From assembly GCA_041660745.1 (NCBI GenBank), contig JBAZVT010000003.1, positions 1,880-65,879 on the forward strand: DNA of 64,000 bases. The letters are read 5' to 3'. Position numbers and translations under genes: made by a program. The stretch's first letter is position 1. Each line of letters starts with the position of its first letter. Below, in pieces: positions 7,403-61,507 of the stretch. The notes beneath the pieces are model-generated. The model made no database searches. It saw only the letters and a list, made by a program, of their open reading frames with translations, and was not told the DNA's origin. Source of the DNA: Minisyncoccota bacterium. GTDB taxonomy: Bacteria; Patescibacteriota; Minisyncoccia; Phycocordibacterales; JBAZVT01.

Positions 7403-7482
7403 GGGTATTTACCCTTTGATGCCTTCCTCGGCTCGGAAGTGAGAAAGGGGACTTTCTCACTTCACTCACTCTACGTCAGCAA
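7403..7482 (+). repeat. Intergenic structured repeat, family A, copy 1
   Basis: GGGTATTTACCCTTTGATGCCTTCCTCGGCTC, then the 12-bp hairpin GAAGTGAGAAAG/CTTTCTCACTTC, then CTCTACGTCAGCAA. Homologous to 30238-30320 (reverse orientation) and 60875-60935. Confidence 0.85.
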
Positions 7483-7490
7483 TAAGAGTC

Positions 7491-26469: not shown

Positions 26470-27575
26470 ATTTTTTATGTCAAGATTTTGTACTCGTCCA
26501 CCACATATGAGACTCTGACGCTGGTAATGTAGACACAATATACCTCAAAGGAGATACAAGACCAAGCGACCAATGAGGACGCCTAGTGTTGTACCAAAGT
26601 AACCAATTAATGAGAGCTTCATTAAAAGCATCAATGTCATGAGCTAAAAGTTTTCTGTTTCTGTTAACAAAAGCTTCCACAACAGTTCGGTTGAATCGTT
26701 CAACTTCAGCGTTCATTTTTGGCGATCTTGGATATGTGTGAAAATGAACGATGTTGTTCTTTTCAAGCAGAACGTCAAAGTGGTCAGCAAACTCACTACC
26801 ATTGTCTGTTTGCACATGCGTAACAGGAAGTGGTGCAACATGTTTAAACTTCATCATGAAGTCAGCAGATGCTTTTGATGAATGAGAAGTATACGCATAT
26901 GCAAAAGCAAATTTTGATTCGCAATCAATACCAGTGAGCAAATATCTTTTAATACCATCGGTGAAGCGGATGACCGAATCTGCTTTAACTAGTCCTCCTT
27001 CGTGACCTTTAGAACGCAGTTTCTTGCGTTTAACTCTGATTTTCTCTCGAAAGGTATCTGATTTTGCATAGTATGAAAGTTTCGTATATTTTGGAAGTTT
27101 TCCTTGTTTCTTGAGATCATTTAACATTCGACCGACAGTAGATGCGGAGAGATCGGCAACCTTGTCTTCTTTCATGAGTACCGCCAGTTTGTCTTTGGAA
27201 AGTCTTGGATCATTCTGGCGTTCCTTGAGAATGAAATCTTCTACAACTTTTGGGATGACACGTTTTCTTCTTTGTTTAGGAGCAGTACTTTTTTTGTTGA
27301 GAAACTCCAGTTTTCCCATACCATCTCGAAGTTCTTTTTGCCAGCGAAAAAGAGTTGGTCTTGAAATGCCAAAGGCTTCTTTAGTGGCAGTTGTTCCATA
27401 CTTCTCCCAAAACGCTAATATCCTGCACCTTTCTTTTGCGGTTTCGCTAATCATATACTTGAAGCGTATCACACGCTCCCAAGTACTAATGAAGCCCTTT
27501 GTTCCTCTAAATTTATTGAAAATGCGCATATGAAAACTCTAATTAAAGAGTCTCATATGTTTCTGAACTTATGCA
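26470..27575 (-). mobile_element. IS481-like insertion sequence (boundaries uncertain)
   Basis: A single DDE (rve) transposase ORF. The only terminal symmetry found is the 12-bp inverted repeat CATATGAGACTC (26506-26517) / GAGTCTCATATG (27549-27560). No target-site duplication was identified. Confidence 0.6.
26480..27529 (-). CDS. IS481-family transposase (HTH plus integrase-core DDE domain)
   Basis: N-terminal HTH region and an rve core (TGIDCESKF...VQTDNGSEF...NAEVERFNRT...YNTRRPHWSL). Confidence 0.88.
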   Translation of the reverse strand: MRIFNKFRGTKGFISTWERVIRFKYMISETAKERCRILAFWEKYGTTATKEAFGISRPTLFRWQKELRDGMGKLEFLNKKSTAPKQRRKRVIPKVVEDFILKERQNDPRLSKDKLAVLMKEDKVADLSASTVGRMLNDLKKQGKLPKYTKLSYYAKSDTFREKIRVKRKKLRSKGHEGGLVKADSVIRFTDGIKRYLLTGIDCESKFAFAYAYTSHSSKASADFMMKFKHVAPLPVTHVQTDNGSEFADHFDVLLEKNNIVHFHTYPRSPKMNAEVERFNRTVVEAFVNRNRKLLAHDIDAFNEALINWLLWYNTRRPHWSLGLVSPLRYIVSTLPASESHMWWTSTKS

Positions 27576-27670: not shown

Positions 27671-29047
27671 ATGAGAATTCTATTCATCTCAAACGACCTT
27701 ATAGCTGGAAATCTCGCCTATCGCCTCAAACAAGAAGGTCATGATGTTAAGTTGTTCGTTGAAGAACCCCTCAGTAAAGAATGCTTCTCTGGATTAGTAG
27801 AAAAAATCGAAGATTGGAAAAAGGAACTTGATTGGGTTGGAAAAGACGGGTTGATTGTTTTTGATGACGCAGGATACGGTGAAATGCAAGAAAAGCTTCG
27901 TAACGATGGCTATACTGTATTTGGCGGTTGCTATGTTGGCGACAAACTTGAAACAGAAAGAGAGTACGGCCAAGCAATCTTCAAAGAATACGGCCTCAAG
28001 ACAGCTCCCCTCAAAAACTTTTCTTCTGTCCAAGATGCAATTGCATATGTAAAGAAAAATGGTGGGTCCTGGGTTATCAAACAAAACAACCACAACTTCA
28101 AACATCTCAGCTACGTGGGTAAATTTGAGGACGGAAGAGATATTGTTAACGTTCTAGAAAACTACGAACTACGCAACGGAGAGATAGACAAAATTACTCT
28201 GCATAAAAAGATTGAAGGCGTGGAAATAGGAGTGGGTAGATATTTTAATGGAACAGACTGGGTAGGGCCAATAGAATATAATATAGAACATACGAAACTA
28301 TTCCCTGGCTGTATTGGACCGACAACGAGCGAAATGGGAACTCTTGCTTGGTATGACGATGATGAATCAGGCAAACTTTTTAAAGAAAATTTAAATCTTC
28401 TCAAGCCATTCCTGCAACATATAGGCTATCGAGGTGATTTTGAAGTCAATTTTATAGTTAACGAGACGGGTGCATATCCACTGGAAGCAACCGCGCGTCT
28501 CGGCACCCCCATCATTCATTTGCATGATGAGATACACGAGAGTCCATGGGGAGAATTTTTATATGCCATCGCCCGTGGTGAACAATATGATTTAAAATAC
28601 AAGAAAGGATTTGGTATTGTCGTTGTTATTGCCACTCCCCCATTCCCATACTCAGAACGTGCTTACAATAGACTTTCAAACAACAACTCATACCGCTACA
28701 ACATATATTTTGATCACGAGATGAGCGCAGAAGAAATGAGCCATATTCATTTTGAAGAGGTGGCTGTGCGTGCTACTGATCCAAAACAACTCTATGTTGC
28801 AGACAGCCGAGGTAATGTTCTCTATGTTACTGGTATGGGACAAACAATCCAGGAAGCACGGGATATCACCTACGAAAAAATAAAACCGATTGTTATTCCT
28901 AAAATGTTCTACAGAAACGATATCGGAGTCGAATTTGAAAAAAATAGTCTTGGAAAACTTAAGGAATGGGGCTACATAGCCGACGGAGAAAAAAGTGAGG
29001 TAGCAGAAATGAACACAATTAGTGAGAAAACGATCGTAGGAATATAA
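27671..29047 (+). CDS. PurD-like ATP-grasp enzyme (phosphoribosylamine-glycine ligase homologue)
   Basis: Collinear with PurD: MRILFISN, LETEREYGQAIFKEYGLKTAP, GGSWVIKQNN, EHTKLFPGCIGPTTSEMGT and FEVNFIVNETGAYPLEATARLGTP. It is divergent, so true GARS activity is uncertain. Confidence 0.6.
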   Translation: MRILFISNDLIAGNLAYRLKQEGHDVKLFVEEPLSKECFSGLVEKIEDWKKELDWVGKDGLIVFDDAGYGEMQEKLRNDGYTVFGGCYVGDKLETEREYGQAIFKEYGLKTAPLKNFSSVQDAIAYVKKNGGSWVIKQNNHNFKHLSYVGKFEDGRDIVNVLENYELRNGEIDKITLHKKIEGVEIGVGRYFNGTDWVGPIEYNIEHTKLFPGCIGPTTSEMGTLAWYDDDESGKLFKENLNLLKPFLQHIGYRGDFEVNFIVNETGAYPLEATARLGTPIIHLHDEIHESPWGEFLYAIARGEQYDLKYKKGFGIVVVIATPPFPYSERAYNRLSNNNSYRYNIYFDHEMSAEEMSHIHFEEVAVRATDPKQLYVADSRGNVLYVTGMGQTIQEARDITYEKIKPIVIPKMFYRNDIGVEFEKNSLGKLKEWGYIADGEKSEVAEMNTISEKTIVGI

Positions 29048-29063
29048 TTCGCATCCAAAAGAA

Positions 29064-29092
29064 CAAAAAACCGCCACACGGCGGTTTTTTGT
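29064..29092. terminator. Bidirectional terminator
   Basis: An A6 run, then ACCGCC paired with GGCGGT, then T6. Confidence 0.7.
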
Positions 29093-29104
29093 TACAGACT
29101 ATTT

Positions 29105-30094
29105 TTATGTTTCTAAAAGCTCTCGTATCCCATCTTCAATATTCACTGTTGGCTTCCAGTCGAGAAGTTTCTTAGCAAGCGCATTATCAGCAAGAGTGTG
29201 TTTCGGTTCTAAACGTCCAGAAATATGTTCAACGGGACCGCCAATAAGCTCGGCAATTTTATTAATTGAAACATTATTCCCCGCCCCAATATTTATCACC
29301 TCACCCTTCCCCACCTTATCACTTTCCATTGCCAAGATATTTGCTCGCACAACATCACGCACATGAGTAAAATCGCGAGTCTGTTTACCATCTCCAACAA
29401 TAGTCATTGGCTTCCCTACCTGTCGCTGTTTCAAAAAACTCGGGATTACAAGTGCATATGCACCCTCAGAACTCTGCCTCAAACCATATACATTAAAATA
29501 TCTGAGACTGACTGTAGGCACCCTGTACACCTCGCTCCATGTCTTGCAATATATTTCTCCAACATATTTTTGTAAGCCATAGGGACTCTTGGGCATTGCA
29601 GTCATAGACTCAACCAGTGGCATTGTTGGTTGGTCACCATATACAGAACTTGAAGCAGAATAAATAAGTTTTTTGACCCCTGCCCATCTACATGCCTCAA
29701 GCACATTTATTGTTCCGCCAATATTAACTTCGTTTGTTTCCTGAGGATGTTCTATAGAATACTGAACGCGAGGCAAAGCAGCACAATGGAAGACGTACTG
29801 AACATCTTTAAATACTTTCTTTATTGATTCCAGACTACACACATCGGCAATATGAAGTGTTGCTTTTTTGTTCACATTTTCTCTCCTCCCTTCAGATAAA
29901 TTATCTATAATATGCACATTGAAACCTCTTTCAACTAATGCATCAACTATATTAGAGCCAATAAAACCGGCACCGCCGGTTACAACAACTTTTATAGTTG
30001 ATGGCGGGATAGTGACTCGTTTTAGTCTACTTCGTTTTGTATTTTTATTTTTCATTATCATCATAGGAAGAGACATTATAACGTATCTAGACAA
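29105..30094 (-). CDS. NAD-dependent sugar-nucleotide epimerase/dehydratase (SDR), paralogue A
   Basis: VVTGGAGFIGSN Rossmann motif and the YGLQK catalytic Tyr-x3-Lys. The true start is probably an internal Met (MIMKNKN...). Confidence 0.9.
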   Translation of the reverse strand: MSRYVIMSLPMMIMKNKNTKRSRLKRVTIPPSTIKVVVTGGAGFIGSNIVDALVERGFNVHIIDNLSEGRRENVNKKATLHIADVCSLESIKKVFKDVQYVFHCAALPRVQYSIEHPQETNEVNIGGTINVLEACRWAGVKKLIYSASSSVYGDQPTMPLVESMTAMPKSPYGLQKYVGEIYCKTWSEVYRVPTVSLRYFNVYGLRQSSEGAYALVIPSFLKQRQVGKPMTIVGDGKQTRDFTHVRDVVRANILAMESDKVGKGEVINIGAGNNVSINKIAELIGGPVEHISGRLEPKHTLADNALAKKLLDWKPTVNIEDGIRELLET

Positions 30095-30237
30095 CCAGTC
30101 ACTGTGGATTACTCACAAAAACTACACTAGCCCACAGAATATTTTTTTACGCATGAAAAAATAATTTTTATCCACACACAAAGCCGTTCGCTGATAAGCG
30201 AACGGCTTTGTGATTTATTTTTCGTTTTCTTTTTCTA

Positions 30238-30320
30238 TTGCCGACGTAGAGCGAACGAACTGAAAAAGTGCTGACTTTTTCAGTTCTGAGCCGAGGAAGG
30301 CATCAAAGGGTAAATACCCT
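30238..30320 (-). repeat. Intergenic structured repeat, family A, copy 2 (reverse orientation)
   Basis: The reverse complement reads GGGTATTTACCCTTTGATGCCTTCCTCGGCTC, then the hairpin GAACTGAAAAAGT/ACTTTTTCAGTTC, then CTCTACGTCGGCAA. It starts directly after the stop codon of the gene at 30321. Confidence 0.85.
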
Positions 30321-31244
30321 TTATTTCTCCATCTCCAACAGCTCCCTTATCCCCTCCTCAATTTTCATTGATGGTTTCCAGCCAAGTAACTTACGGGCAC
30401 GTGAATTATCTGCAAGGGTGTGTTTCGGTTCAAGACGTGCGGGGATATGCTCTGCGGGACCGCCAATGAGTTTGGCGATTTCATTCACGGAAATATTCTG
30501 TCCGGATCCTATATTAATCACCTCGCCCTTCCCCACCTTATCGCTCCCCATCGCTAAAATATTTGCTTGTACAATATCTCGCACATGAGTGAAGTCGCGA
30601 GTCTGTGTACCATCTCCTGTAATAGTCATCTTCTTGCCCTCACGATGCTGTTTGAGAAACCGGGCAATAACAAGTGCATAAGCACCCTCTTCGCTCTGGC
30701 GAGGGCCGTAGGCATTAAAATAGCGCAAACTGACGGTAGACAAGCCATACACCTCACTCCACGTTTTACAATAGAGTTCCCCGACATATTTCTGTAAACC
30801 ATAGGGACTTTTTGGACTGGCAAGCATACCTTCCACAAGAGGCATTTTTGTCTGATCACCATATGCCGCAGATGAGGCGGAATAGATAAGTTTTTTCACC
30901 CCTGAAGCGCGACAGGCCTCAAGCACATTTATTGTTCCGCCAATATTAACCTCGTTTGTTTCTTGAGGATGTTCTATAGAATACTGAACTCGAGGCATCG
31001 CAGCAAGATGGAATACATAGTCAGCACCTTTGAATAATTTTTTCAGAGCTGTGAAATTACAAATATCTGCGACATGAAGATGTGCCTTTTTATGCACATT
31101 CTTTCTCTTCCCCTCCGAAAGATTATCTACAACATGAACATCGAAACCCTTCTCCACAAGTGCATCTGTTAGATTTGAACCTATAAATCCTGCTCCACCA
31201 GTGACGACAACTTTGATTTTTGAATCATTCTTCAATGCAGGCAT
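30321..31244 (-). CDS. NAD-dependent sugar-nucleotide epimerase/dehydratase (SDR), paralogue B
   Basis: Has the same motifs as paralogue A. The two proteins align along their whole length with most residues identical. Confidence 0.9.
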   Translation of the reverse strand: MPALKNDSKIKVVVTGGAGFIGSNLTDALVEKGFDVHVVDNLSEGKRKNVHKKAHLHVADICNFTALKKLFKGADYVFHLAAMPRVQYSIEHPQETNEVNIGGTINVLEACRASGVKKLIYSASSAAYGDQTKMPLVEGMLASPKSPYGLQKYVGELYCKTWSEVYGLSTVSLRYFNAYGPRQSEEGAYALVIARFLKQHREGKKMTITGDGTQTRDFTHVRDIVQANILAMGSDKVGKGEVINIGSGQNISVNEIAKLIGGPAEHIPARLEPKHTLADNSRARKLLGWKPSMKIEEGIRELLEMEK

Positions 31245-37360: not shown

Positions 37361-37498
37361 CTTAAAATTCGATATATCAAAAAACAAACCTAATAATTAC
37401 ACGGAAATACACACATCTCGCCCATCGCGAGTAGTATATAATTCCATGTAACAGGGTAAAAAACAAAAAATCTTTCTGTGACGTATCACAGAAGTGGA

Positions 37499-40916
<3,418 letters not shown>

Positions 40917-41221
40917 ACCACAATATATTTTTTGTTTTTGTTTTACCCTGTTACATAGAATCATCTACATAACAAGTTACTTCTACATTTTACCTGCGTA
41001 TCTCCAGCTTCGAAAAGACCATATAAAATGGTTGCTGGGATACAATGAACAAATCTTATCCCGATGTGAATCGAGAATCAGCAAATGTTATTTTTCAAGG
41101 TATCGATCGTTCGGAAATAAAAAACCGCTTTTTGAGGCGGGGGTGGACTACACAAGAATACTTGGTCGTCTAACTCCGCTTTAAAATGTGGTTAGTGATC
41201 TGCATATCTGTAATGGGTATT

Positions 41222-43341: not shown

Positions 43342-43737
43342 TTATTTCAACTCCACTTTTGCACCTGCATCCTCAAGAGCTTTCTTGAGAGCCTCTGCAT
43401 CTTCTTTCTTCATACCTTCCTTGAGCATCTTTGGAGCTGCATCAACGAGGTCTTTTGCTTCCTTGAGACCAAGAGCAAGAGCTTCTTTTACAACCTTAAT
43501 AACTGCAATCTTCTGAGCACCTGCATCTGCGAGGTTAACACTGAAAATTGTTTTCTCTTCTGCCGCACCCGCTGCTGCTGGAGCTGCGACTGCTGTTGCT
43601 GCTGCAGAAACACCAAACTTAACTTCAAAGAATTTTACAAGCTCGTTGAGATCAAGTACTGACATGTTCTCAATTGCTGTTACGATATCCTTGAATTTTG
43701 CTGGAGTCTCAACAACTGTATTCTGTGCGTTGTCCAT
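43342..43737 (-). CDS. rplL: 50S ribosomal protein L7/L12
   Basis: Ala-rich hinge [17 protein letters not shown] and the C-terminal domain [24 protein letters not shown]. Confidence 0.97.
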
Positions 43738-43807: not shown

Positions 43808-44299
43808 TTATGAGGTTTTAGTCTTTGCGATAGCATCGAGAGCGATAACAAGTCCCTGTATTGGAGAATTGATAACGTTGACGAACATACCATAAAGAGT
43901 TTTCTGAGAAGGAATGAGGGCGATAGCCATCATCTCTTCTTTGTTCATAAACTTACCTTCGAAGACACCTCCGAGGATTTGAATTTTCTTGTCGAGCTTC
44001 TTCTGGAAGTCATAGACTTCGCGAGCTGCATCGGTAAGATCTTTACTGAATGCCATTCCAAGTTCGCCTGGGAGTTCTGGCAACGTACCAGTGACACCAC
44101 CATCAACAAGAGCTTTCTTAGTGATAGTTTTCTTAGCAATCTTGTACCCTATTCCCAAGCCCTTGAGAGTCTTGCGAATAATAGTAGCGTCAGCAACTGT
44201 CAATCCATGGAAGTTGAAGAGAACGATAGAACCAGAGGTTTTTACCGCATCACTTACTTCTGCATAAATTTCCTTTTTCTTTTCTTTTGAGATAGCCAT
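43808..44299 (-). CDS. rplJ: 50S ribosomal protein L10
   Basis: MAISKEKKKEIYAEV...FNFHGLTVADATIIRKTLK, located immediately upstream of rplL. Confidence 0.95.
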   Translation of the reverse strand: MAISKEKKKEIYAEVSDAVKTSGSIVLFNFHGLTVADATIIRKTLKGLGIGYKIAKKTITKKALVDGGVTGTLPELPGELGMAFSKDLTDAAREVYDFQKKLDKKIQILGGVFEGKFMNKEEMMAIALIPSQKTLYGMFVNVINSPIQGLVIALDAIAKTKTS

Positions 44300-44336
44300 T
44301 TGGAATTTTTTACGAACGTAGTGAGTTTAAAATTCC

Positions 44337-44403
44337 CACCCTGTTAAATCCCCTGAGTACAGGGAATCATAGAAATCTGATTTCTATGACATTTAACAGG
44401 GTT
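44337..44403 (-). repeat. Three-way-junction palindromic element, family Z, copy 1 (rplJ leader)
   Basis: The outer stem is CCCTGTTAAAT paired with ATTTAACAGGG. It encloses two hairpins, CCCTG..CAGGG and CATAGAAATC..(G)ATTTCTATG. Confidence 0.8.
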
Positions 44404-44505
44404 GTGAAAATATATTCGCTAGGCTCGTTATTTTCTACAAAATAAATCGACCCGTAAGGGCCTGATAAAAGTGAGATCTCACATATCAATAGATATGTGA
44501 GTAAA

Positions 44506-44611
44506 CCTCGATAGGCTATTCCAGCAAAGCTGGACGCCCGTCCACCGAAGGTGGATTAGGGACCTGTATTAAAGCGGTTTTCCGCTGCCTATTGTCTTTG
44601 GCCTTACGAGG
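44506..44611 (-). ncRNA. Structured leader RNA upstream of rplJ (candidate L10-leader-type autoregulatory element)
   Basis: On the minus strand, the closing stem CCUCG-UA-AGGC / GCCU-AU-CGAGG encloses three hairpins: GCGG-aaaa-CCGC, CCACC-uucg-GGUGG and CCAGC-uuu-GCUGG. It lies between a putative promoter and rplJ. Confidence 0.3.
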
Positions 44612-44615
44612 TACA

Positions 44616-44643
44616 TATTTACATAAAATAGTTCACTTGTAAA
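44616..44643 (-). promoter_or_regulatory. Putative rplJL promoter (TTTACA, 16 nt, TAAATA)
   Basis: Minus-strand hexamers at 44643-44638 and 44621-44616. Confidence 0.3.
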
Positions 44644-44705
44644 GCAAGTACCCGCAGAACAATCTTTTTAAAAAATATATAATTTTCTACTAAAACCCTC
44701 CATTA

Positions 44706-44746
44706 TAAAAAGGGTGCGGTCCGCAGCGGACCGCACCCTTTGTTTT
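44706..44746. terminator. GC-rich palindromic terminator
   Basis: AGGGTGCGGTCCGC pairs with GCGGACCGCACCCT, flanked by A and T runs. Confidence 0.8.
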
Positions 44747-44770
44747 CCAACCGAGCGACACAGGTGGTCG

Positions 44771-45031
44771 CTACTCTTCTTGACCGTTTTCAGGGCAGTC
44801 CGGTTCCAACTCACAAGAGAAGTAGTACCCGAGACAGACTCCAAAGAGAATGAAACCAATCGGTCCCCCAACAACAGTAAGAGCCCTGCCCCAGAAGTCC
44901 GATTCCCTTGGCTCAAGATGACTCCGGAAAAGTCCGAAATCCTGCCAAAGAAATATCAAAACGCTCCAGACAGAACAGCAGGCCCAAAGACATGGAAGCC
45001 ACTGATAAGGATTGTGAAAAAAGGCACTCAT
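44771..45031 (-). CDS. 86-aa hypothetical two-TM protein (high-G+C islet)
   Basis: Internal start of ORF 44771..45271, with SD AAAGGAGA 6 nt upstream. Reads MSAFFHNPYQWLPCLWACCSVWSVLIFLW...GGPIGFILFGVCLGYYF. Confidence 0.5.
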   Translation of the reverse strand: MSAFFHNPYQWLPCLWACCSVWSVLIFLWQDFGLFRSHLEPRESDFWGRALTVVGGPIGFILFGVCLGYYFSCELEPDCPENGQEE

Positions 45032-45077
45032 ACAGCATCTCCTTTCCCGAAAGTTCCTACACAGAAGGCAAGTACGA

Positions 45078-45365
45078 TTACTCCTGCATTGGTTTGTGCA
45101 GTATTCTTTCACGCCTCGCAAGCGCCCCCGCAAAATCGTGAGCACATATTGAGATGGGTCCGAAGAGGACCCTGAATATGTACAGACGCCACGATGCCCA
45201 CGAGAATTTCCCCCGAGAAAGATCTGGGAAGAAAACGAACGCAGCGCCGATTGAGTAGCGCAGCCACGCAAGAACCGCGAGGCCTACAACAACAGCAACG
45301 ATCCCGACGGGTACAACCAGACATTCCCACATAAGAATCTCCTTCCAAAAAATAAACATCCACAT
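45078..45365 (-). CDS. 95-aa hypothetical membrane protein (high-G+C islet)
   Basis: Internal start of ORF 45078..45458, placed after the upstream terminator hairpin, with SD GAGGA. Reads MWMFIFWKEILMWECLVVPVGIVAVVVGLAVLAWL... Confidence 0.45.
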   Translation of the reverse strand: MWMFIFWKEILMWECLVVPVGIVAVVVGLAVLAWLRYSIGAAFVFFPDLSRGKFSWASWRLYIFRVLFGPISICAHDFAGALARRERILHKPMQE

Positions 45366-45405
45366 TCTTTCCTCATCCTTTATACCACACCTCATATCTA
45401 ATATC

Positions 45406-45440
45406 AAAAAGACCCGGGCATGTGTATGCCCGGGTCTTTG
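45406..45440 (-). terminator. GC-rich terminator after the 79-aa ORF
   Basis: AAAGACCCGGGCAT pairs with ATGCCCGGGTCTTT, with a T run on the minus strand. Confidence 0.8.
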
Positions 45441-45464
45441 TCCTAATGATTTGGACAAACTACT

Positions 45465-45704
45465 TCACCCCTGAAACATGTTCGCAAGAGCAATGCGCTG
45501 ACCGACACCGACGTATGGCTTCTGTTCAGAAGCAGGGAAACAACCTGCTAGCGGTGTTCCATACCCCTCGGGACCCCACAACGAACCAGGCTTGTGATAC
45601 CCACGTCCACACGATGCGACAGCCGCCAAGTCGCAAGGAGGCAGGCCACTCACATCTGCCCACGTCAGATCGCTCACCTCAGCAGTAACGTAACCGCCAC
45701 GCAT
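45465..45704 (-). CDS. 79-aa hypothetical soluble protein (high-G+C islet)
   Basis: SD GGAGG 5 nt upstream of the ATG, and its own terminator. Reads MRGGYVTAEVSDLTWADVSGLPPCDLAAV...; no family recognised. Confidence 0.5.
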   Translation of the reverse strand: MRGGYVTAEVSDLTWADVSGLPPCDLAAVASCGRGYHKPGSLWGPEGYGTPLAGCFPASEQKPYVGVGQRIALANMFQG

Positions 45705-45783
45705 AGTGCCTCCATAGGTAAAAGAAAAGTTTATTCCGCGAACGCTCTATCACCAGAGTACCATATTGGAAGCATCGTGGGTA

Positions 45784-48700
45784 TTATTCTTCTTTTACCT
45801 CGTGTCCACCTTCAACAAAAATAATTTCCGGCACAACAACTTCTTCCGTTTGTAATTCTAATACCTCTAAAGGTTTATTTAGGGCATCATTTTTTTCCTC
45901 AACAACACCCTCCCCGCTTTCTAAATTATCGGGTTCTTTGTATTCATCGGCAATAGGTGTGGGAGTCTCTCCTTCTGTTTTTTCTTCAGAACTCACAGGG
46001 ACCTCCTCTTCCGTTTTTTCTAAAGTAGTGCTTGCTATTGATGCAGATTCCGTTTCTTCTAACATGGCCATTTGCATAGCACCGAAGACACCATCTTCGT
46101 GTATTTCAATAGCCTCAGAAAGAAGTGCAACAGTCACTGGATCTTCTGCATATGCGAGCTTAGGATTTCCTGACGGCACAGCATCAAACCATGGTGAAAA
46201 ATCGACAAGACCAAAGACTGAATCCCCCACTGCAAGATTATTTTTTATCTCTTCAAATGGCCCCGTCGCGTCACCCCACCAATTTTCTTGTGCGAGGATA
46301 GTATTTTCACCCGTAGAAAGAATGCCGTTTGAACGATTTCCAAATATTTGACTGCGAGCAACCGAAGCACTGTCCCCAAAGAAAAGAATCCCATATTCAT
46401 TACGGGCAAGTGTACTTGAAGCAATCACAACTTTCCCATCATCAAATATCCCAACACCCTCAGCTTCATTATCTGAAATATTTGAATTTGTAATCGTCAT
46501 TAAACCCGATGCCAAACTATTTCCAAATATTTCTACACCTGCACCACAATAAGAAATATCTGCATCAGAAATTTCTGCGGAAGAATTGTCGTATACATAC
46601 ACCCCTACCCCGTCCACACGGGAAATATTTGGACGTGTGACTTGGGCGGTGCTATTGGCATATATAGACAAAGCATCTCCAGAAATATTTGAAAGAGCGA
46701 GGTCAGAAAAAATCCCATGAGAATCCATGTACAGATTAATTCCGCCCGTAGTATTTTCAGCGCGCACGTCAGAAAGAGTGACCTCGGCCCCGTCGTATGC
46801 ATTCACAATGGAATCACCGCCAGAAATACTAGTATCCTGTATCGCAAGCGTACACTGTCTACAGGTGACGGTATCAGTATATGGAGAGCCTGTGATTGTG
46901 CTGTTTGAAATAACCACTGAAGAACTTGCCTGTGCACTTATTCCATCCTCAAGTTTTTTTATTTTTGTATATCCAAATACATTTCCTACAGACCCTGAAT
47001 AAAACTCCGTTGCACCAGTGCCATATTCAGAGAGTTCCCCATTATCAGAAGACCTCAAATCTCCCCCGACAGAATCATCTGTAAATTCAGTAAAAATAAC
47101 TGGATTGTCTGATGTGCCAAGCGACTTGATAGTACCCTCCACAGAAAGTCCTGTTGCATAACTCCCCCAACTTCCATTATCGTAAAATTTTACAATCGTC
47201 CCAGGCAAGAGTGTCAGCGTTGTTCCTGAAGCGACGTGTATATTACCTTCAAACACATACGGACTTTCTTCTGGAGTGAGTATCATATCTTCTGTAAAAG
47301 TTTCCCCTCTATACCACACAGTCGAAACACTGTTACGTGACTTTGGCGTGCCTAGGATATATCCATCTTTTGAATCTTTTCCATTTGCAATTTCTCCGGT
47401 GTTCGCATTCCAGTTTTCATAATCAAATCCCCCAACATACGGCGAGACCCGTTCCATGGTTCTTTTGTCACCAGTATCATTACTCCCCCCTGGCCAACTT
47501 CCTTCAACCAACACTGTCGTGTCTATGGTTGTAGATCCGTAATTTAGATTCAATATAACACCACTATTGTTGAGAGCTCCGACATATACAAGGTCTGCTT
47601 GGATATCTGAAACAGAAGTATTGTCTGTTCTCTCCAAGAGAAAGTAGCCATGGGCAGGAATTGTTTTTGATAATGAAATACGCGGTGTTCCAGTAGCTTT
47701 ACTATTAACAAGAGCCCAGCCCGAAAGATCTATATCATACGGAGTCGTGTTATACAGCTCCAACCATTCATCATTAGCATCAGCCTCTGTGCCCATCCAA
47801 GCAACTTCATTAATAACTACAGGCATCGTCGCAACAGACACACTCACTGCAACAGGCTCAGAATCACCACCTGCATTGTGTGCTGAGACAGTAAATTGTA
47901 AGTCACTTCTATCATCAACAACCACGCTGAGCCCAGAGTATGTGGTTGTAGAAACAAGACCGTTTAAATTAAATGTAAAATATTCAGCAATACCAAGAGA
48001 TTCATCTGCTTGCCAGGTCAACGTCAGGGTTGTTGTTGCAACTAGACAGCCAGTCGAGACGAGAGACTGCGAACACTCAGCGACTGAAAAATTTGTAACT
48101 CCAGGAAGCTCAGGAAGAAACGGTGACGGGATTACAGGAACCTCCGGTTCTCCGGGAGATGCTGTGTGGCGGGATCTATTTGACCCAGAATAAATAACCT
48201 GTGTTGGGTTATAAAAAGGCGCAAACACCCCAGTTGGGAAATTTGCGTCAGCTACTTTTGATTGATCTATAAAGCTCGGTGTAGAATTAAGTTCCAATCC
48301 CTCACCCTCATCAAGGACTGTGGTGATACTATTAGTAGTCTTTGACTGTAAAAAAGTAATTGATTTTATTGCAGACTGTGCAAAAGTCTGAGCACTTTCA
48401 CCTGTCTTTTTCGCAACAACCGTTGCTGTTGTCTTTCCGGTATATCCAAGAACGGAAGCGATATTCCCACCCGTTTGCACTGTCCACAACGTTCCATAAT
48501 TAGCACCCCTCCAGGCGCTTGTCGCAACTTTTGCCACAGGTGCACCTATGTAATCTGAGAAAAGATACGCAAAGCCAATTGGTATAAGTTGAAAAATATT
48601 TTTCTTCGCAAGACCCTCAGCAAGCTCTTTATCCTTCAGCGCCTCTTCTACTTGCTCCTGCTTTTGCTCTGCAAGATATTCCTCGCGCGCCGCTTTCGCC

Positions 48701-60623: not shown

Positions 60624-60827
60624 TTAATTAGCTACGAATGGGAGAAGGCCCATGAAACGAGCACGCTTTACAGCTTCTGAAAGCTTGCGCTGATTCTTGG
60701 AGCTAACACCACTGCGCTTGTGTGATGTGATACGGCCATGAGGATTGAGGAACTTTTTGAGGACCTCTATATCCTTATAGTCTATATGCTTTATGTTGTT
60801 TTGCGCAAAATAGCACTGTTTTTTCAT
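60624..60827 (-). CDS. rpsR: 30S ribosomal protein S18
   Basis: IDYKDIEVLKKFLNPHGRITSHKRSGVSSKNQRKLSEAVKRARFMGLLPF. Confidence 0.96.
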   Translation of the reverse strand: MKKQCYFAQNNIKHIDYKDIEVLKKFLNPHGRITSHKRSGVSSKNQRKLSEAVKRARFMGLLPFVAN

Positions 60828-60874
60828 GTCTGATTTTTTAAGAGCGAAGCGATATAAAAGATGCCAAACTTTTG

Positions 60875-60935
60875 TTGCCTTCCTCGGCTCGGAAATGAGA
60901 AAATTTTTCTCATTTCTCTCACCCTACGTCGGCAA
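60875..60935 (+). repeat. Intergenic structured repeat, family A, copy 3 (lacks the GGGTATTTACCC module)
   Basis: TTGCCTTCCTCGGCTCG, then the hairpin GAAATGAGAAAA/TTTTCTCATTTC, then CCCTACGTCGGCAA. Confidence 0.8.
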
Positions 60936-60945
60936 GAAAAATCGG

Positions 60946-61002
60946 CACCCTGTTAAATCCGCTTCGCGGTATCTGCTTTCCAAGCAGATATTTAACAGGG
61001 TT
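60946..61002 (-). repeat. Three-way-junction palindromic element, family Z, copy 2 (ssb-rpsR spacer)
   Basis: The outer stem CCCTGTTAAAT / ATTTAACAGGG and the flanks CAC...TT are the same as in copy 1. The inner hairpins differ: CCGC-TTC-GCGG and ATCTGCTT-TCC-AAGCAGAT. Confidence 0.8.
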
Positions 61003-61054
61003 AAGATTTTGTAACCGCACAATGTCGCTTTCGCTTCATTCTACGGACAAAATC

Positions 61055-61507
61055 TTAAAATGGAATGTCTTCAGGGTTAATCTCTTCTTCTGGATATTCT
61101 ATCGCTGGAGCATCTGCCGTCGGAGCCGGTGCGCCTTTCGTATCCTTTTCAGGATATGCGGCACCTGGTGTTCCTCCCTCTTTACGAGGACCAAACTGAA
61201 TTCGGTCTGCAATAACTTCTGTGCGATATTTTTTCTCTCCATCTTTACCATCCCAACTGCGTGTCTGCATTCTTCCCTCCACGAGGATAGAAGAGCCTTT
61301 TTTCATGTATTGAGCTGTTGTTGCAGCTTGATTTCCAAACACTACCACGTTGTGATAATCTGTCGCATCCTGGCGAACACCGCTCTTGTCCTTCCACGTT
61401 CTATTAGTTGCAACTGAGAAGGTGCATACTTTTATACCAGAAGGTAAAGATTTCAATTCTGGATCACGAACCAAATTACCTATGATAATTGCTTTGTTGA
61501 GATACAT
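61055..61507 (-). CDS. ssb: Single-stranded DNA-binding protein
   Basis: OB-fold N-terminus MYLNKAIIIGNLVRDPELK...TDYHNVVVFG and the acidic tail EEEINPEDIPF. Confidence 0.95.
   Translation of the reverse strand: MYLNKAIIIGNLVRDPELKSLPSGIKVCTFSVATNRTWKDKSGVRQDATDYHNVVVFGNQAATTAQYMKKGSSILVEGRMQTRSWDGKDGEKKYRTEVIADRIQFGPRKEGGTPGAAYPEKDTKGAPAPTADAPAIEYPEEEINPEDIPF

Follow-up and report, generated by a model that had tools for sequence, protein, structure and literature searches.

The described systems that come closest to the repeat reported here are the REP/REPIN/BIME palindromes, the bacterial MITEs (Correia/NEMIS, ERIC and RUP), the attC sites of integrons and the ITR of AAV. The conserved part of a REP is the hairpin itself, and REPs are lineage-specific. 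The AAV ITR has an A-B-B'-C-C'-A' topology with C-TTT-G and C-AAA-G triloops, and it occurs in flip and flop forms. In the element described below, by contrast with a REP, two variable hairpins are enclosed by a closing stem; it is this stem that is conserved, and its sequence recurs across phyla. Two copies lie in the window, which is the whole 64,000-nucleotide stretch of DNA, from a bacterium of the Paceibacterota (Patescibacteria), that was analysed. Patescibacteria genomes are tiny and gene-dense, and their non-coding DNA has been little studied.

Two structured copies beside rplJ and rpsR

Copy 1 spans 44339-44401 and copy 2 spans 60948-61000. Both are closed by exact 11-bp arms, CCCTGTTAAAT on the left (44339-44349 and 60948-60958) and ATTTAACAGGG on the right (44391-44401 and 60990-61000). 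The interiors, 41 and 31 nt long, have unrelated sequences; both are made of one short and one long hairpin, set flush. These are CCCTG-AGTA-CAGGG (44351-44364) and TCATAGAAAT-CTG-ATTTCTATGA (44367-44389) in copy 1, and CCGC-TTC-GCGG (60959-60969) and ATCTGCTT-TCC-AAGCAGAT (60971-60989) in copy 2; no strand is assigned to any of the arms or hairpins. An earlier, sequence-only reading of this DNA had described two copies with identical arms and two differing interior hairpins, and they are present as it stated. It had given the common flanks as CAC...TT. Shared flanks do exist, but they read CA...TT, and their A:T pair extends the stem of the window copies to 12 bp.

The relaxed arm pattern CCTGTTA-N20-50-TAACAGG matches twice in the window and in none of 100 shuffles, which rules out chance as the source of the two copies. 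Both can form a three-way junction on either strand (-30 to -35 kcal/mol; z-scores -6.2 to -7.1). When a covariance model made from sequences of other genomes is run over the window, precisely these two copies are its only significant matches, at 54.2 and 38.9 bits; the next match scores 17.5 bits. Folding and covariation bear out the three-way junction that had been proposed, in which the outer stem is fixed and the hairpins covary.

The gene assignments made earlier also hold. Copy 1 precedes rplJ (43808-44299) and rplL (43342-43737), and copy 2 lies in the rpsF-ssb-rpsR operon between ssb (61055-61507) and rpsR (60624-60827), with an S6-like ORF upstream of them; all four named genes are on the minus strand. 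Measured to the ATG, copy 1 is 37 nt from rplJ (38 had been claimed) and copy 2 is 118 nt from rpsR (about 120 claimed). A match to the Rfam L10_leader (RF00557) adjoins copy 1 at 44431-44619 on the minus strand without covering it, and scores 31.6 bits against a threshold of 44 (E = 0.007). This L10_leader-like region, which a terminator-like hairpin closes just upstream of copy 1, is kept at 93-94% in the relative L122. Like the element, the L10_leader is found upstream of rplJ, but its sub-threshold match lies upstream of the element, and the element itself matches no Rfam family.

Comparison with relatives shows both window copies to be recent arrivals, within structured mosaics of ~120 nt and ~190 nt. 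The genome L129 is the same organism as the window (100% identity). L122 has the same gene order, an L10 protein that is 94% identical and a nucleotide identity of ~78-96%. The ssb-rpsR spacer is 22 nt long and without an element in L122 and L128, the latter with an S18 identical to that of the window, versus 227 nt in the window (60828-61054, no strand), where a hairpin, the element and a second repeat that we call 'W' make up a mosaic. In L122 only ~10 nt separate the L10-leader terminator from the ATG of rplJ; in the window a segment of ~130 nt with copy 1 (44303-44432, no strand) stands there. The covariance model finds no element upstream of rplJ in L122, L126, L127, L134, L135 or L137. 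The same model does find copies elsewhere, in a gap beside recA in L137 and in the rplW-rplB gap in L140 and L141.

The 'W' repeat that adjoins copy 2 (60871-60935, no strand) has other copies at 7415-7490 and 30236-30310 (reverse). Its family is built like the element, with a conserved outer part TTGMTGCCTTCCTCGGCTCGGAA ... CTCACYCTACGTCRGCAA around a variable, covarying hairpin. One copy lies between two paralogous NAD-dependent epimerase/dehydratase genes (29105-30094 and 30321-31244), which contain a 300-nt direct repeat of 76% identity (29100-29399/30322-30621).

Distribution and architecture of the family

A search for exact arms separated by a 20-50-nt gap over species-representative genomes finds at least 120 loci. 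They fall in many classes of Patescibacteria, in Desulfobacterales, WOR-3/Stahlbacteria and Omnitrophota, and in a few Bacteroidota and Cloacimonadota, by the taxonomy labels of the MAGs as deposited, some of which may belong to mis-binned contigs. Requiring exact arms biases this sample of the family, and gene calls around the loci are crude longest ORFs. Several genomes each give 3-7 loci among the matches listed, and 2.9 million viral contigs give only one match. Collecting further copies with the outer-stem pattern was a check proposed in the sequence-only reading, and the internal architecture is indeed kept in most of them.

Scoring covered 132 exact-arm elements, 130 from the listed loci and the two window copies. 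Two hairpins are present in 102, and 96 of these 102 have no unpaired base at the junction. Loops of 3 nt predominate (149/204), closure by 5'-C...G-3' is the rule (146/196), and many loops read GCGAAGC/GCTTCGC or C-AAA-G/C-TTT-G. The outer stem mostly reaches ~15 bp, in the form TTYA-CCCTGTTAAAT ... ATTTAACAGGG-TRAA. In a 31-sequence alignment all 14 hairpin pairs have changed on both sides. Two-sided changes fill 108 cells versus 39 expected; none of 500 shuffles reaches 108, and slid controls collapse. The arms themselves occur in compensated variants (CCCCGTGAAAT/ATTTCACGGGG, CCCCGTTAGAT/ATCTAACGGGG and CCCTGTTAAGT/ACTTAACAGGG). A structure-only scanner run over ~1 Mb returns 71 canonical elements and only 1 other, whose arm is diverged but recognisable; T-shaped folds closed by an unrelated stem do not turn up there, and shuffled sequence yields none. 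Judged by these substitutions, both the sequence and the pairing of the outer stem are under constraint, and of the hairpins the pairing only.

No Rfam family covers the element, either in the window and 18 further loci at gathering thresholds or in 44250-45850 down to E = 1. The full-text literature searched gave no description of such a repeat: none of the papers with any of the four 11-mer forms deals with one, and the matches listed are mostly mammalian primers, with one paper on an archaeal plasmid. This family of T-shaped palindromic repeats is apparently undescribed.

Its members behave as DNA and not as strand-specific RNA. Which hairpin comes first, the short or the long one, does not depend on the direction of the flanking gene (11/11 and 9/9), and the gene contexts are co-directional in 52 cases, divergent in 12 and convergent in 10. 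When stem pairs are oriented by transcription, G-T occurs 12 times versus 7 for A-C among 872 pairs (p = 0.36), and a G-U strand bias was rejected on this count. A preferred position inside intergenic regions was also rejected: the mean relative position of ~0.4-0.5 is unconvincing given the crude start calls.

Elements are nested in each other in L093, L044 and L031 and stand in tandem in L011. Some have a single hairpin (L022, L049), others have arms of 100-124 nt (L060, L047, L053), and two metagenomes hold 'empty' perfect palindromes in which the arms abut (CCCTGTTAAATATTTAACAGGG; L131 8606-8627 and L133 4389-4410) inside the family flanks TTTA/TGAA or TTCA/TAAA. L100 and L108 have near-identical composite flanks, and the interiors between these flanks are reverse complements of each other. 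In L101 the interior is likewise flipped relative to L009, L048 and L070, and L110 and L093 appear by eye to add further cases. Such reverse-complemented interiors between near-identical flanks are, on their sequences, flip and flop.

The core is also found within larger units. In Desulfobacterales it lies inside a ~190-nt unit that has a terminal inverted repeat of its own, and in WOR-3 inside a ~115-nt unit whose interior is conserved and unstructured. In Patescibacteria a hairpin-core-hairpin unit of ~130-190 nt is the sole similarity among the otherwise unrelated L009, L048 and L070. These three loci were considered as orthologous sites with vertical covariation and rejected as such, their flanking genes being unrelated and only the repeat unit common to them. 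A composite leader ends exactly at the ATG of rplC and rplX in L103 and of nusA in L100, and L108 holds a fourth copy of it. The 39-41-nt unstructured interiors of the WOR-3 copies invited a CRISPR-like reading, which fails because there are no tandem arrays (L016 and L118 have none) and the arms are inverted, not direct. What looked like a composite transposon in L005 is a perfect fold-back: L005 is the whole contig JAHJJO010000063.1, with arms 1-3467/3468-6934 that are 100% complementary, and this assembly artefact doubles one element.

A probable DNA-level repeat and its competitors

These comparisons establish that both copies belong to the family, how it is built, that its hairpins covary, that it favours neither strand, and that its copies can be gained, lost, nested and flipped. 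We consider it fairly probable that the element is a DNA-level structured repeat of the REP/BIME/MITE kind, prone to gain and loss, and not a gene-specific RNA. Of the two roles offered in the sequence-only reading, a structured mobile repeat fits the evidence best. The other, a dedicated regulatory or processing RNA for ribosomal-protein mRNAs, is not supported, given arbitrary housekeeping and metabolic neighbours in several phyla, both orientations, few G-U pairs and absence from the corresponding sites of relatives. Copies 1 and 2 would belong to a widespread set of dispersed 50-70-bp palindromic repeats with a sequence-invariant outer stem of 11-15 bp. This stem would close a 'perfect' three-way junction, in which the two hairpins vary in sequence and not in pairing. 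A trans-acting factor present in several phyla would recognise the conserved stem, either as a folded T-shaped single strand or as a cruciform, and an HUH/Y1 (RAYT-like) enzyme or a structure-specific recombinase would be the most plausible class. Inside operons the transcribed stem (-31 to -35 kcal/mol) may incidentally act as a barrier to RNA decay, or it may serve as a double-strand RNase site, as REPs do.

No mobilising enzyme and no recurrent transposase family, nor any other recurrent protein family, accompanies the elements among the 120 loci listed. Among these loci there is also no autonomous element with the same ends and no target-site duplication; the flanks prolong the stem as imperfect inverted repeats and are not directly repeated. 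Arms that are identical across phyla, around hairpins diverged to saturation, are better accounted for by a conserved host factor than by the co-evolution of an ordinary transposase with its ends.

Y1/HUH transposases are a plausible enzyme class for the element. The only candidate ssDNA-hairpin enzyme in the window is a RAYT-like Y1 (IS200-type, HUH) transposase of 231 aa (50387-51082, minus strand; Pfam Y1_Tnp E = 4.7e-11). Its best NCBIfam match is the model for REP-associated tyrosine transposases (43.9 bits against a cutoff of 80), and its family numbers more than 7800 proteins. The gene is bordered on both sides by a palindrome with a 19-bp stem, CCATAGGACCGCCCTATGT/ACATAGGGCGGTCCTATGG, that differs from the element (50340-50383 and 51104-51145, with a diverged form at 51411-51480). 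Its synteny near rplJ is kept in the Paceibacterota L134, L135 and L137, at 54-55% identity, and the flanking palindrome differs from ortholog to ortholog. A second Y1 sub-family sits on either strand inside the S10 operon, between rplB and rpsS (L140 10001-10678, L142 122-799, L143 10001-10693 and L145 10001-10675), and L141 has a Y1 gene at the same place (2239-2916) with no rplB gene called. No RAYT-like gene is flanked by the element in the readable flanks of the window, L001, L134-L139 and L143-L145, where other palindromes stand instead; the upstream flank is partly masked in L140 and L141. Only 1 of the 120 element loci listed has a Y1 homolog. L140 has the shortest distance between an element and its nearest RAYT-like gene (0.9 kb), versus 6 kb in L001 and 6 and 10 kb in the window. 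The arms resemble the RAYT palindrome of L001 in CCCTGT/ACAGGG, a likeness that we treat as chance because it is missing in the 89%-identical ortholog L143.

The Y1 gene of the window is part of an ~8.3-kb stretch (44647-53005) without counterpart in L122, which has 1.8 kb there. This stretch also encodes a 1263-aa surface-type protein and a 202-aa protein, and its segment 44650-45780 is ORF-poor and G+C-richer (GC ~0.48) and gives no Rfam or Pfam signal. Two DnaA-box-like CTGTGGATAAC motifs (50311-50321 and 51386-51396) flank the region of the Y1 gene. Elsewhere in the window, an IS481-like DDE transposase gene (26480-27529, minus strand) encodes rve domains and scores 176 bits with the NCBIfam IS481 model, below its cutoff of 224. 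The cumulative GC skew peaks near 29 kb, and its sign flips there (about 28000-30000), which suggests a putative replication origin or terminus.

The strongest competitor to a DNA-level repeat is a host-beneficial RNA module that acts in either orientation in the leaders and intercistronic spacers of highly expressed operons. Its 12-15-bp stem and a coaxial hairpin, ~20-24 bp together, could form an RNase III-type site or a stabiliser or insulator of mRNA ends, and the helix could be shared with the 23S processing stem. We regard this as possible but rather unlikely. It is supported by the gene context in Patescibacteria, where 31 genes have a start that faces an element within 150 nt. Nine of them encode ribosomal proteins (L3 twice, L10 twice, L9 twice, L24, S11 and S18), and the same set holds NusA, RnpA, YbeY, PheS, SerS, BipA, Sua5, RecA (twice), SecD, MraZ, FtsX and HrcA. 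Against a background of 6-10%, the share of ribosomal-protein genes is significant (p = 6e-5 to 0.003), and collapsing recurrent genes moves it to p = 0.006 to 0.055. The bias is real but modest, and the enrichment upstream of translation genes, a test of which had been proposed earlier, does appear in Patescibacteria but is not exclusive. It could reflect insertion into highly transcribed DNA, a cis-preference of an enzyme encoded nearby or a selected RNA effect, and as a sign of the last it counts against the DNA-repeat reading. An element occurs independently upstream of rplJ in the window and in the Doudnabacteria genome L011, the conserved composite leader stops at the ATG of three genes, and the symmetry of the stem makes the RNA equivalent on both strands.

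Against an RNA module stand the copies outside Patescibacteria, which adjoin metabolic genes. G-U makes up only ~1.4% of stem pairs, without sense-strand bias, a share that looks far below expectation for structured RNAs. Triloops dominate, whereas tetraloops are expected in stable RNA hairpins. The sites are not kept in close relatives, and no RNase III substrates are known to keep one sequence across phyla.

The near-identical helix in the 23S processing stem supports the RNA module and counts against the DNA repeat. A one-mismatch arm, CCCTGTTACAT (40946-40956), and its compensating partner ATGTAACAGGG (37446-37456, plus strand) form the outer 12 bp of a ~60-bp 23S processing stem, and the match is kept in L122. 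The duplex is the same as that of the element, but it is closed from the opposite end, and the likeness may be accidental, with a chance estimated at ~0.001-0.005 (1 in 1000 to 1 in 200). It may also derive from co-opted arms of two former elements, which is conceivable because any two copies are complementary, or it may be the sign of a shared double-strand RNase. The 23S rRNA match (37507-40906, minus strand) is 3400 nt long versus a 2925-position model, which implies ~475 nt of insertions, and the window has a 23S-5S pair without a 16S rRNA gene. The arm was considered as a boxA mimic (UUUAACA) and rejected: pairing with its partner would make it inaccessible, and the 23S gene is preceded by a boxA-like GTTCATTGTA that is more canonical. 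A promoter in the arms, with TGTTAAAT as an extended -10, was discarded for want of a properly spaced -35. As for an intrinsic terminator, the element has no consistent T run, and it lies between the leader and the start codon of essential genes.

A site for site-specific recombination or inversion is improbable, even though several features point that way. The 11-15-bp arms would bind a tyrosine, serine or Xer-like recombinase, extrusion of the hairpins would place the arms side by side, and the interior would flip. Interiors flipped relative to their flanks, the empty 22-bp palindromes and one sequence conserved across phyla would all be expected of such a site. The arm has TGTTAAAT in common with the XerD arm of dif, and the 11-bp arm presumably resembles TTATGTTAAAT, which serves as a lead only. 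Set against these points, no recombinase gene is associated with the elements among the 120 loci listed, and there is no central region of 6-8 bp and no second type of arm, unlike dif. The compensated changes in the arms point to pairing and not to protein contacts as the constraint, and no copy is flipped in the Desulfobacterales (15/15) or WOR-3 (11/11) sub-families. The geometry fits neither a dif/Xer half-site nor attC.

The main idea of the sequence-only reading, an autoregulatory leader whose three-way junction mimics an rRNA binding site for a ribosomal protein, is already largely refuted and extremely improbable: it has in its favour the position of both window copies upstream of ribosomal-protein genes, the junction topology and the weak L10_leader match beside copy 1, but the same element stands beside RecA, SecD, MraZ, HrcA, thiolases, transketolase and other genes and in either orientation, its junction has no unpaired nucleotides to carry specificity, the corresponding leaders of relatives lack it, no Rfam ribosomal-protein leader model matches over 44337-44403 or 60946-61002, and it holds no orthologous site in a fixed orientation.

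As a DNA-level repeat, the element explains structured 'leaders' that precede essential genes and are not regulators, and it is a warning for annotation that two copies alone do not justify calling riboswitch-like leaders. Its stem, unchanged between Patescibacteria and Desulfobacterales, offers a defined bait in the search for the presumed trans factor. The element may also mark horizontal exchange between episymbionts and their neighbours.

Comparison with known systems

Three traits of the element have not been seen described together, namely a stem shared across phyla, perfect hairpins that change freely, and mobile or recombining behaviour. It resembles the REP/REPIN/BIME repeats as a short, dispersed intergenic palindrome that is present several times per genome, forms mosaics with other repeat modules, occupies 3' and 5' untranslated and intercistronic DNA, and is subject to gain and loss among relatives. 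The lineages that carry it are rich in RAYT-like genes, one of which is in the window. Unlike REPs, it has TTYA/TRAA flanks instead of a GTAG/CGTC tag, and no RAYT-like gene with readable flanks is bordered by the element.

With the MITEs the element has in common its small size, the lack of coding sequence, terminal inverted repeats (11-15 bp), presence/absence polymorphism and co-transcription with neighbours. The WOR-3 and Desulfobacterales sub-families, with their conserved interiors, look like recently amplified MITEs. The differences are that there is no target-site duplication and no parent IS was found among the loci listed, and that most interiors are unrelated yet perfectly paired, which ordinary MITE decay would not give.

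Integron attC sites, which recombine as folded single strands, are similar in having conserved outer boxes around an interior that varies and is branched in some cases, and the arms of the element happen to contain GTTRRRY and RYYYAAC. These boxes come in the opposite order, GTTAAAT first and ATTTAAC last, and not as R''-R'. The element also has neither extrahelical bases nor an unpaired spacer, and no cassettes or integrase are nearby.

The AAV ITR is identical in topology, with a T-shaped single-strand fold, almost no unpaired bases at the junction, the same triloops, and flip and flop of the cross arms. The element differs in being internal to a bacterial chromosome, in its length (~60 nt versus 145 nt) and in having no Rep-binding GAGC repeats and no genome termini. 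The likeness is only an analogy of form, or possibly of working mode, and not membership. If the analogy extends to the parvovirus ITR/Rep logic, the invariant stem could be the recognition site of a cross-phylum trans enzyme that moves, nests and flips T-shaped ssDNA hairpins. The elements would preferentially colonise the leaders of highly transcribed translation operons in Patescibacteria, and their complementarity would then have been co-opted, for example at the base of the 23S rRNA processing stem; taken as a whole, we judge this scenario unlikely.
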